Positions 12,644-24,973 of a stretch of 52,949 nt of DNA are shown one piece after another. The DNA comes from Candidatus Rokuibacteriota bacterium (GTDB lineage Bacteria; JAUVQV01; DATDCY01). The notes beneath the pieces are model-generated. The model ran no database searches and had not been told where the DNA came from. It saw only the letters and a program-made list of their open reading frames with translations. The stretch lies in contig JANOHV010000145.1 in assembly GCA_031406795.1 (NCBI GenBank), positions 1-52,949 on the forward strand, in the 5' to 3' direction. Within the stretch, counting starts at the first letter, position 1; each line of letters starts with the position of its first letter. Both the position numbers and the translations under genes were made by a program.

Positions 12644-14140
12644 TCACCCTGCCCCGAGCCGCGCCACGATCGGCGCGACTGAGGGGGCGATGAGCTTGAT
12701 CATCCAGCCGGGAAACATGCCGGCGAAGGCGAGGAAGAACACGAGGATCACGAGCGGCACGCGCTCGACAAACGTCGCATCCGTCAGCTCGGCGTGGTGC
12801 GGGTCCTGCAGCGGGCCGTAGAGCATCTTGGTCAGCGCCCGCAGCAGGTAGACCGCCGTCGTGACCACGCTGGAGGCCGCGAGCACCGTCATCACGCGAT
12901 GCGAGGTCGAGGCGTCGGCGAAGGCGCCGACGAAGACCTGGATCTCGGCGATGAAGCCGGCCAGCCCGGGCAGGCCGAGGCCCGCCATCCCGCCGATCAT
13001 GTAGCAGACGCCGAGGAAGGGCATGACCTTGATCAGCCCGCCCATCTCGGTGATGAAGCGGGTGTGCGTGCGCCCGTAGATCATGCCGATCAGCGCGAAG
13101 AAGAGCGCCGTCATCAGGCCGTGCGCGAACATCTGAAAGACCGCCCCCTGGAAACCGGTCTGGTTGAGTGTCGAGAGCCCGAAGATGACCAGACCGCAGT
13201 GGCTGACCGAGCTGTACGCCGTGATGTACTTCAGGTCGGTCTTCTTGCAGGCGACGAGCGCCCCGTAGAAGATGTTCACCGTCGTCAGCGCGAGGAAGAA
13301 GGTGCCCCACATCTTCGCGCCCTCGGGCATCAGCCAGATCACCTTGAGGCAGCCGTAGCCGCCGAGTTTCATCAGCACGCCGGCGTGCAGCATGGAGACC
13401 GCGGTCGGCGCCGAGGCGTGACCGTCGGGCGACCAGGTGTGGAACGGCCAGAGCCCGCCGAGCGTGCCGAACCCGAAGAACATCAGCGGGAAGACCCAGG
13501 CCTGGGTTGCCAGCGGGACGCCCTTGAGCGCGATGGTCTCCATCGCGAAGGTCGGCGAGCCGGACTGGAAGAAGAGGACCAGGATGCCGACCACGATCAG
13601 CGCCGAGCCGCCCATCAGCATCATGGTCAGCTTCATCGCGGAGTACTCCTTCGGCCCGGTCCCCCAGAGACCGATCAGCAGGTACATTGGCAGCACGGCG
13701 ATCTCGTAGAAGAGGAAGAAGAGAAAGAGGTCCTGGGAGGCAAAGACGCCGAAGACGCCGCCGACGAGCAGCAGCAGGAAGGCGAAGAACTCCTTGCCGC
13801 GGTGTTCGTGGCGCCAGGACGCCAGCACGCCGCAGAAGATGACGACCGCGGTGAGCAGGATCATCAGCACGGCGACCCCGTCCACGCCGAAGTAGAATTC
13901 GATGCCGAGCCGGTCGAGCCAGGCGTGGCGCTCGACGTGCCAGAGCGGCGGCGCCCCGGCGGGGCCGGGGGTGGCGACGCGCTCGAGGGCGTCGAAGACG
14001 AGGTAGACCGCGAGCGCGACGTCGATGCCGGCGGCGGCGAGGGCGACCTGCTTGATCGTCTTGAGCCGCTCGGCGGGCAGCAGCATGATGATGCCCACGG
14101 CGACGAAGGGCACGAGCGTGATGAGGGTCAGGATTCCCAT
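12644..14140 (-). CDS. nuoM: NADH-quinone oxidoreductase subunit M
   Basis: DLFLFFLFYE, PFHTWSPDGHASAPT, AGVLMKLGGYG, AYSSVSH, GLPGLAGFIAE. Confidence 0.95.
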   Translation of the reverse strand: MGILTLITLVPFVAVGIIMLLPAERLKTIKQVALAAAGIDVALAVYLVFDALERVATPGPAGAPPLWHVERHAWLDRLGIEFYFGVDGVAVLMILLTAVVIFCGVLASWRHEHRGKEFFAFLLLLVGGVFGVFASQDLFLFFLFYEIAVLPMYLLIGLWGTGPKEYSAMKLTMMLMGGSALIVVGILVLFFQSGSPTFAMETIALKGVPLATQAWVFPLMFFGFGTLGGLWPFHTWSPDGHASAPTAVSMLHAGVLMKLGGYGCLKVIWLMPEGAKMWGTFFLALTTVNIFYGALVACKKTDLKYITAYSSVSHCGLVIFGLSTLNQTGFQGAVFQMFAHGLMTALFFALIGMIYGRTHTRFITEMGGLIKVMPFLGVCYMIGGMAGLGLPGLAGFIAEIQVFVGAFADASTSHRVMTVLAASSVVTTAVYLLRALTKMLYGPLQDPHHAELTDATFVERVPLVILVFFLAFAGMFPGWMIKLIAPSVAPIVARLGAG

Positions 14141-14217
14141 TACGCGGGCGCCTCACCCGCAAGACTATGCAGGCTAACATTCTCTCGGACGGCGCGGATG
14201 TTGTAGTGAAATTTCAT
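14140..14217 (-). CDS. Putative 25-aa junction micro-ORF (copy A) MKFHYNIRAVRENVSLHSLAGEAPA
   Basis: Starts 8 nt after nuoL stop; TAA overlaps nuoM ATG (TAATG); similar to copies at 17181 and 24887. Confidence 0.55.
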   Translation of the reverse strand: MKFHYNIRAVRENVSLHSLAGEAPA

Positions 14218-14225
14218 AGTGTCCC

Positions 14226-24890: not shown

Positions 24891-24969
24891 AATATCCGCG
24901 CAACGTTTGCGTCTACCGCGAGCATGTCCGCAAGAGCCTTTGCCGTCTTGCGGGCGAGGCGCCCGCGCC

Positions 24970-24973
<4 letters not shown>
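24887..24973 (+). CDS. Putative 28-aa junction micro-ORF (copy C) [28 protein letters not shown]
   Basis: ATGA overlap with kinase stop and ATGA overlap with regulator start. Confidence 0.6.

Follow-up and report, generated by a model that had tools for sequence, protein, structure and literature searches.

Short modular repeats at stop/start overlaps within operons of a Candidatus Rokuibacteriota bacterium: a probable translational relay of the MIRU kind

Introduction

Mycobacterial interspersed repetitive units (MIRUs) reportedly go back to Supply et al. in 1997. As far as the accessible parts of two accounts go, these elements insert at start codons and bring along a coupled open reading frame (ORF) at -4 spacing (PMC12548453), and they show tetranucleotide direct repeats, ORFs, and ends that overlap the adjacent genes (PMC3184786). 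A comparable arrangement is described here for a bacterium of the phylum Candidatus Rokuibacteriota, on contig JANOHV010000145.1 of assembly GCA_031406795.1. The whole stretch of DNA that was read (52,949 nt, 67% GC, hereafter the window) contains three junctions within operons, nuoL/nuoM, nuoI/nuoJ, and histidine kinase/response regulator, each filled by a micro-ORF that leads from the end of one gene to the start codon of the next. The three micro-ORFs are copies of a short, modular, non-autonomous, and genus-restricted mobile repeat, denoted here as the junction repeat, and the comparison of its copies makes it probable that the bridging ORF acts as a translational relay within this mobile repeat, the peptide having no function of its own. 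MIRUs appear to be the closest known kind of element, a likeness that is drawn from their geometry, as described in the accessible text, and not from sequence.

Three filled junctions in the window

A first-pass annotation of the window, made from the letters alone, had noted the three junction ORFs together with their overlap geometry, and both were confirmed in the sequence (Table 1), as was the tripeptide R-E-N/H at codons 11-13, encoded with CGA, CGT, and CGC as the arginine codons. The identities it assigned to the flanking genes (nuoL/M, nuoI/J, kinase/regulator) agree with the Pfam matches. The motif common to the three junctions is not a product of chance: its 23-nt core has three matches in the window, compared with a mean of 0.00 in 100 shuffles, none of which contained a match, and the three aligned inserts have a mean column identity of 75%. 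An in-frame length difference of 9 nt, likewise noted, holds for the ORFs and not for the inserts, which measure 77 vs 83 nt from ATG to ATG and are thus 6 nt apart; the two values differ because the stop overlaps differ. In the nuoL/nuoM copy, the ATG is located 8 nt past the nuoL TAA, and the TAA of the micro-ORF has one base in common with the nuoM ATG. The micro-ORF frames of the window copies form the ends of alternative frames that stay open over far greater distances, a common situation at 67% GC. The nuoL/M insert is covered, with zero to one differences, by DNA contigs from two other samples; since these samples belong to the same study as the probable source of the window, the independent support that they lend to the assembly is weak.

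Build and distribution of the junction repeat

The window belongs to a genome of 4.1 Mb in 278 contigs (G000), which was compared with three genomes of the same genus (G001-G003). The repeat occurs in several forms. The full type A form spans 143 nt from start codon to start codon and consists of a 5' module, roughly AAATTTCTCCGCAAC...CCGCGAGAAT, that begins directly after an ATGA, an optional middle part of ~60 nt, and a 3' module of ~45 nt, which carries a TAG and a 7-bp GC hairpin (a perfect palindrome with a 3-nt loop) and ends with ...CGCGCTA. The three window copies, with their 77-83 nt, correspond to type A minus the middle part, and the long copies have both ends in common with them. 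Most type A copies sit between co-directional genes. In type B repeats (~135 nt), a different 5' part with a hairpin of its own is joined to the same 3' module, and solo 3' modules are also present.

Type B repeats were observed in G000 on contigs C71, C201, C185, C173, C128, C103, and C46 (loci L009-L015). Their 5' part starts directly after a TGA and contains a 12-bp hairpin. The repeats themselves terminate with ...CGCGCTAGG or ...CTAAG; they lack a bridging ORF, and some of them sit between convergent genes.

A 46-nt profile of the 3' module marks 24 places in G000, and a covariance model of this module, 46-52 nt in extent, detects 23 strong copies in G000, 8-10 in G001, three in G002, and at least one in G003. 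With a long copy as DNA query, matches were obtained in four of 41 genomes, namely G000 and the three genomes of the same genus, and in none of the 37 others. The search for the core pattern in the genome and its relatives likewise uncovered a dispersed family found only within the genus: four of six genomes of the phylum, all belonging to this genus, contain the pattern, the other two do not, and a reversed control pattern gave no match. An exact 24-mer was found in six genome_contigs stretches and 45 metagenome_contigs stretches. Among the public records with the repeat, L112-L117 bear inconsistent submitter taxon labels despite the close relationship of their DNA to the genome of the window; such labels cannot be relied on in this lineage.

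Several features of known repeat classes were looked for in these sequences. Rfam gave no match in the window at the gathering threshold, and none at E up to 1 in 20 copy-bearing loci. No larger autonomous element came to light in G000, where all ten significant matches to the 5' module pair with a nearby 3' module, a test that is limited by the draft state of the assembly (278 contigs). Tandem arrays are absent from the four genomes, in which no two model matches lie closer than ~900 nt. Terminal inverted repeats of at least 8 nt were not found in five copies; the only such pair is an internal one of 8 nt (CCGCAAGA / TCTTGCGG) in two window copies.

Filled and empty junctions in sister genomes

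Comparison with the orthologous junctions revealed empty sites in the sister genomes. The kinase/regulator junction is filled in G000 and G002 and consists of a plain ATGA overlap in G001 and G003. Similarly, the nuoI/nuoJ junction is filled in G000 and G002 (29 codons in the latter), G003 has a plain GTGA overlap and G001 an ATGA overlap. The nuoL/nuoM junction is occupied by the short form in G000 and, at the same place, by a long form (~143-144 nt) in G001 and L124, the long forms having locus-specific substitutions in common with G000; in G003 the two genes are separated, with no insert, by a spacer of ordinary kind that measures 34 nt and has a Shine-Dalgarno (SD) sequence of its own. One more site, filled in the genome of L112, is a plain ATGA overlap in G000 (contig C6), with which L112 is syntenic at 80-89% identity; L112 thus represents another close relative. 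As sister genomes show plain ATGA or GTGA overlaps at junctions that are filled elsewhere, the inserts are insertions that repeat xTGA. The end tetranucleotides of 38 type A copies are ATGA/ATGA in 28, GTGA/ATGA in four, and GTGA/GTGA and ATGG/ATGG in one each, from which we conclude that the repeated target measures 3-4 bp (TGR or xTGA).

The nuoK/nuoL junction is variously empty (G001, L134, L161), filled by a copy of the junction repeat (G002, G003, L156), or filled by an unrelated sequence (G000), and hence constitutes a hot spot. The G000 filler is neither a member of the repeat family nor another repeat; it is single-copy in the genome and has its own hairpin, and L124 carries a diverged homologue that also encodes 27 codons.

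Two further observations concern individual sites. At nuoI/J of G001 (locus L036, G001:C13 ~271290-271305), about ten bases matching the 3' end of the element stand directly before the ATGA, which suggests that an earlier insert was deleted between two GGAGG motifs, so that the site would once have been occupied. A short insert with the 3' module at G000:C255:20275-20326 (counterparts at G001:C15:1295377, L144, and L162) is flanked by a 13-nt direct repeat that covers the terminal codons of the upstream gene, stop included. Owing to this repeat, the ORF of the insert, read in a third frame, ends with ...GER-stop like the upstream gene, a few bases before the next start. A duplication of 13 nt does not fit a fixed target duplication of 3-4 bp.

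Retention of the open frame and overlap geometry

The four genomes and the retrieved contigs yielded a pool of 79 unique copies, 37 of which were selected by a fixed rule as having the 3' module abutting an in-phase downstream start. The automatic test asked for a bridging ORF that ends on the downstream start and begins either on a stop in the coding phase of the upstream gene or within the 20 nt that follow this stop. Frame and overlap geometry are kept in 30 of the 37 copies by this test and in two more, both kinase copies, by hand reading. Among the other automatic failures, two have an upstream flank too short for the phase test and do possess the ORF, and in one (L139) the upstream gene is fused in frame through the module and ends on the ATGA, giving a protein ~10 residues longer. 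The bridging ORFs comprise 16 different lengths (16, 18, 22, 23, 24, 25, 27, 28, 29, 32, 33, 46, 47, 48, 49, and 50 codons). The remaining two frames of these sequences contain stops at 59/1293 and 44/1293 codons (3.4-4.6 per 100); with one phase in three and the chance of an open frame derived from this stop density, bridging would be expected by chance in roughly 5-17% of copies. The 42 copies outside the selected set are of type B, solo, antisense, differently spaced, or too near a contig end, and several of them bridge on inspection (C8, L127, L140, L149, L155, and further loci taken up below).

Since the copies share ancestry, length changes were also counted within the same locus. The geometry is kept in 13 of 15 minimum events (P = 3.1e-5 at one chance in three). 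Such changes were recorded at the C195 locus (48/49/50 codons), nuoI/J (28/29/18 codons), nuoL/M (25/47 codons), the repeat-family copies at nuoK/L (27/33/38 codons), three further loci (48/29, 48/16, and 28/48 codons), a locus read in the third frame (19/34/39 codons), and the L125 locus, where an 18-codon ORF alternates with an in-frame fusion. The conserved TAG of the module normally closes one frame, and it is in this frame that the bridging ORF runs at one locus (G001:C15:1415935, L143, L160). GAG stands there in place of the TAG, and the ORF reaches its end on an ATGA 41 nt downstream. Altogether, the module is read in three frames at different loci. The duplication of ATGA explains why a start lies on the upstream stop and a TGA on the downstream start; it does not explain the distance of 2 modulo 3 or the stop-free frame.

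Divergence of the encoded peptides

The substitutions in the inserts are spread evenly over the codon positions. Five equal-length nuoI/J variants have 6/7/8 of 17 sites variable at the three codon positions of the 5' part, with pairwise divergences of 0.17/0.21/0.23, vs 7/5/30 of 60 variable sites and divergences of 0.05/0.04/0.23 in the first 60 codons of nuoJ on the same contigs. The kinase pair shows a pattern alike to that of nuoI/J. This flat profile indicates that the insert diverges about as fast as the synonymous sites of the neighbouring genes. The GC content at third codon positions (GC3) of 39 micro-ORFs averages 0.63, compared with 0.91-0.96 in the flanking genes, and no peptide matches Pfam or NCBIfam at E up to 1. 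The common end 'LAGEAPA' is the translated hairpin module, whose conservation is just as high in type B, solo, and antisense copies, and both 'REN' and 'LAGEAPA' represent DNA-level motifs that are kept in antisense or otherwise framed copies. The substitution pattern, together with the retained frames, leads us to conclude that the openness of the frame is probably under selection and the peptide is not.

Hairpin and antisense copies

The 3' hairpin is well conserved, with 97% of cells paired over 33 copies. The isolated hairpin has a folding energy of about -12.4 to -12.8 kcal/mol; it ends 4-5 nt ahead of the start codon, and its loop region contains GAGG. The folding energy is not unusual in comparison with shuffled sequences (z -0.2 to -1.05), and no compensatory changes occur in the hairpins of the 33 copies, so that nothing in these data points to a structured RNA beyond the palindrome.

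Ten antisense sequences were read on the gene strand, with TTG starts and read-through allowed. At C191:61714, a 41-codon ORF begins in an ATGA that covers the upstream stop and ends in a TAATG at the downstream start; at C209, a 68-codon ORF with a TTG start ends on an ATGA; and in L112 the upstream gene reads through the entire insert to an ATGA. The C225 locus is ambiguous on bridging, and in L135 the upstream phase call is not sense and the downstream flank is too short. In the unbridged antisense copies, the CTA end of the element supplies the TAG of the upstream gene, and GGAG(G/A), contributed by the reversed 5' module, lies a few bases ahead of the ATG of the downstream gene.

A translational relay and alternative explanations

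The reading that we hold to be probable proceeds as follows. The element sits in the overlapping stop/start tetranucleotide (xTGA, mostly ATGA) of co-directional genes, with an xTGA at both ends. The left copy retains the upstream stop and supplies the start codon of the insert, and the right copy retains the downstream start and supplies the stop of the insert. With an insert length of 2 modulo 3 and an open frame, ribosomes that have finished the upstream gene can begin anew on the insert. Translation would carry them across the hairpin, which they would unwind, as far as the next start codon, where they would stop and reinitiate. Independent initiation at the downstream start is presumed to be poor next to the hairpin, which would otherwise block it, so that the coupling would depend on translation of the micro-ORF, and the insert would act as a translated spacer that keeps translational coupling. 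The first-pass annotation had offered a dispersed insertion element preserving such coupling as one of two readings, and this one is well supported by the genome-wide family, the empty and filled sites, the repeated xTGA, and the retention of frame and overlap.

A number of observations weigh against the relay. Two of the 37 sense copies truly fail to bridge, namely L157 and nuoL/M of G001, where one additional base leads to a stop at the conserved TAG. At one locus with five variants, type B copies occupy the junction with no bridging ORF, and none is found in the antisense copies at the C198 locus (three variants) and L119 or in the antisense solo copy at C72; the relay is thus common and not obligatory. 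About 20 nt of the native junction, including the SD, were replaced at nuoL/M (vs G003) and at the L112 site (vs G000), so that insertion is not always a clean duplication. The antisense long copy at C191:61714 keeps the frame of the element strand open, as read by hand in the alignment, and part of the openness signal is therefore inherited from an open master copy. Gene phases were set by a local GC3 rule and not by a gene caller, metagenome variants assigned to the same locus could in principle be independent insertions, and RNA run X18 yielded only contigs of relatives at 85-95% identity, which are uninformative on transcription or starts in this organism; parts of the window left uncovered do not count as evidence.

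Open frames could also arise as a passive by-product. If the master copy was open and 2 modulo 3 in length and its copies are young, the geometry would follow from the ATGA duplication with no selection involved. Both ends of the ORF, its start over the upstream stop and its stop over the downstream start, result from that duplication alone; at 59% GC and the observed stop densities, 28 codons in a row stay open with a chance of roughly one in three; and the element-strand frame is open in at least one antisense copy. The phase is nevertheless kept across the 16 ORF lengths, and the geometry in 13/15 within-locus length changes, which is hard to square with a by-product; orthologous copies differ at ~17-31% of the sites in the 5' part, and none of them has gained a new stop; GAG takes the place of the TAG precisely at the locus that uses the other frame; and the in-frame fusion of the upstream gene in L139 points in the same direction. 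We regard this explanation as unlikely. Far less credible still is the other reading of the first-pass annotation, in which the micro-ORFs encode functional small proteins or leader-like peptides tuning subunit stoichiometry. The C-terminal ...SLAGEAPAx and the R-E-N motif common across copies would speak for it, yet both are kept at the DNA level in untranslated or differently framed copies. It is further contradicted by the flat codon positions, a GC3 of 0.63 vs about 0.9, ORF lengths from 16 to 50 codons, the absence of the inserts from the same junctions in sister genomes, and the lack of any Pfam or NCBIfam match.

As another alternative, the main effect might be exerted at the level of RNA or transcription, with a promoter in the 5' module, the hairpin as a stabiliser, processing site, or protein-binding site, and the ORF as a secondary feature. 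The 5' module has a TTnnCA - 17 nt - GAGAAT/GATAAT arrangement, and two of three long copies contain a sigma-70-like consensus site (TTTACA-17-GATAAT, 10/12; TTGGCA-17-GAGAAT, 9/12). Promoters have precedents in other repeats: promoter activity is reported for the MIRU-bearing senX3-regX3 spacer (in the accessible part of PMC4213456), and Neisseria REP2 and Correia repeats carry promoters (according to the available text of PMC3184786). No such site is present, however, in the third long copy or in window positions 14000-25100, which include all three copies, and the shortest copies are devoid of the GAGAAT region. Moreover, the folding energies are ordinary, compensatory changes and Rfam matches are missing, and the retention of the frame is left unexplained, all of which makes an effect of this kind improbable as the main one, to about the same degree as the passive by-product. 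A promoter role may coexist with the relay, as the available text of PMC4213456 reports for the MIRU-bearing senX3-regX3 spacer.

The translational relay could be part of a broader specialization. Tentatively, the junction repeat may be a mobile element specialised for the niche of the xTGA overlap, which it would reach without the help of terminal inverted repeats or of any recognisable transposase from the same genome, and its relay ORF would have evolved at the level of the element. Candidate routes of insertion would be copying guided by microhomology or the action, in trans, of an enzyme on single-stranded DNA that recognises the hairpin. The relay ORF and the GAGG of the loop in one orientation, and GGAG in the other, would then render the element harmless inside essential operons.

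Window copies and flanking genes

The coordinates of the three copies, their hairpins, and the flanking genes are compiled in Table 1. A nuoK-like gene was also identified in the window (Pfam Oxidored_q2). In the kinase (21936-24890, + strand), residues 32-135, which precede the PAS, HisKA, and HATPase_c domains, weakly match the sodium:solute symporter family (PF00474), suggesting a transporter-like sensor domain at the N terminus.

Table 1. Copies of the junction repeat and associated features in the window
Feature	Position	Strand	Remarks
Copy 1, short internally deleted repeat copy, nuoL/nuoM junction	14140..14217	-	25-codon ORF, TAA overlaps nuoM ATG (TAATG)
Copy 2, short repeat copy, nuoI/nuoJ junction	17181..17267	-	28-codon ORF, ATGA overlaps on nuoI stop and nuoJ start
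Copy 3, short repeat copy, histidine kinase/sigma-54 regulator junction	24887..24973	+	28-codon ORF, ATGA overlaps on kinase stop and regulator start
Copy 1, 3' module hairpin	14144..14160	-	7-bp GC stem, 3-nt loop, one G-U pair
Copy 2, 3' module hairpin	17188..17204	-	loop AGG (part of GAGG), ~10 nt ahead of nuoJ ATG
Copy 3, 3' module hairpin	24950..24966	+	
nuoM-like gene, downstream partner of copy 1	12644..14140	-	Pfam Proton_antipo_M, 3.1e-61
nuoL-like gene, upstream partner of copy 1	14226..16250	-	Pfam Proton_antipo_M and Proton_antipo_N
nuoJ-like gene, downstream partner of copy 2	16648..17184	-	Pfam Oxidored_q3, 9e-29
nuoI-like gene, upstream partner of copy 2	17264..17860 (5' end approximate)	-	Pfam Fer4 families (4Fe-4S)
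Sensor histidine kinase, upstream partner of copy 3	21936..24890	+	Pfam HisKA, HATPase_c, PAS
NtrC-type response regulator, downstream partner of copy 3	24970..26319	+	Pfam Response_reg and Sigma54_activat
Unrelated filler, nuoK/nuoL junction	16257..16340	-	27-codon ORF from nuoK stop (ATGA), end 6 nt before nuoL ATG

Implications

The 16 ORF lengths, the 13 of 15 within-locus changes, the flat codon-position profile, and the change from TAG to GAG make it possible to separate selection for openness from selection on the peptide. The population data hence constitute a natural experiment in which selection for a correctly phased, open frame can be told apart from selection on the encoded peptide. 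At the level of sequence, they support the view that coupling by termination and reinitiation is important enough in complex I and two-component operons to constrain inserted DNA. In practice, such inserts are prone to be miscalled as small genes or untranslated spacers, and they break short-read assemblies.

Comparison with known systems

Like the bacterial miniature inverted-repeat transposable elements (MITEs) Correia, ERIC, and RUP and the Rickettsia palindromic elements, the junction repeat is small, non-autonomous, and associated with short target duplications. Some MITEs and Rickettsia palindromic elements carry promoters or are read within ORFs of the host, comparable to the extension of the upstream gene in L139. 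In contrast to MITEs, neither terminal inverted repeats nor a related autonomous element were found, and the preferred site is the stop/start overlap itself.

The junction repeat is partly reminiscent of the GTAG type of repetitive extragenic palindromic sequences (REPs), with a short GC-rich stem-loop preceded by (G/A/C)TAG and a copy number of a few dozen. According to the accessible part of PMC3733652, the TAG/CTA end of GTAG REPs often gives the stop codon of the neighbouring gene, as it does in the antisense copies of the junction repeat. Unlike in GTAG REPs, the tag is placed 4 nt from the stem, and the units are single instead of forming inverted dimers.

REPs are linked to REP-associated tyrosine transposases (RAYTs), and a gene of the Y1/RAYT type (PF01797, 34.8 bits), the only one in G000, is present at L107 (G000:C70:14713-17967). 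On both sides of it, at ~1130-1345 and 1900-2165 of this locus, another GTAG-tagged palindrome is arrayed at a period of 48 nt, a classical REP/RAYT arrangement that is unrelated to the junction repeat. A link of the junction repeat to this single Y1 transposase was rejected, as the array around it is a different one and no match to the module model better than E 0.5 was obtained there. PF01797 has no match in G001-G003, which are 78-95% complete.

The correspondence with MIRUs is closer, and the remark in the first-pass annotation that the family was not recognised as described gives way to the accessible accounts of MIRUs with the same geometry (PMC12548453, PMC3184786). The two differ in several respects: the host belongs to an unrelated and rarely sampled phylum, the junction repeat does not form tandem arrays, its build is modular with a 3' hairpin module that also occurs in type B and solo copies, and its copies are inserted in both orientations with the module being used in three reading frames. 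As far as the available descriptions of MIRUs extend, both are short repeats (about 40-100 bp in MIRUs) scattered in the spacers within operons, both show empty and filled sites with tetranucleotide direct repeats as well as GC-rich internal inverted repeats, and in both the ends of the ORF overlap the stop and the start of the neighbouring genes (-4 spacing), which is read as keeping downstream translation. MIRUs were, according to the same accessible sources, first seen between a sensor kinase and a regulator, and one of the window copies is located likewise. As the kind is already known from mycobacteria, the junction repeat represents a new and independent member in an obscure phylum, and with it an independent case of the strategy proposed for MIRUs, in which a selfish repeat colonises the stop/start overlaps of operons and is harmless by remaining translatable.

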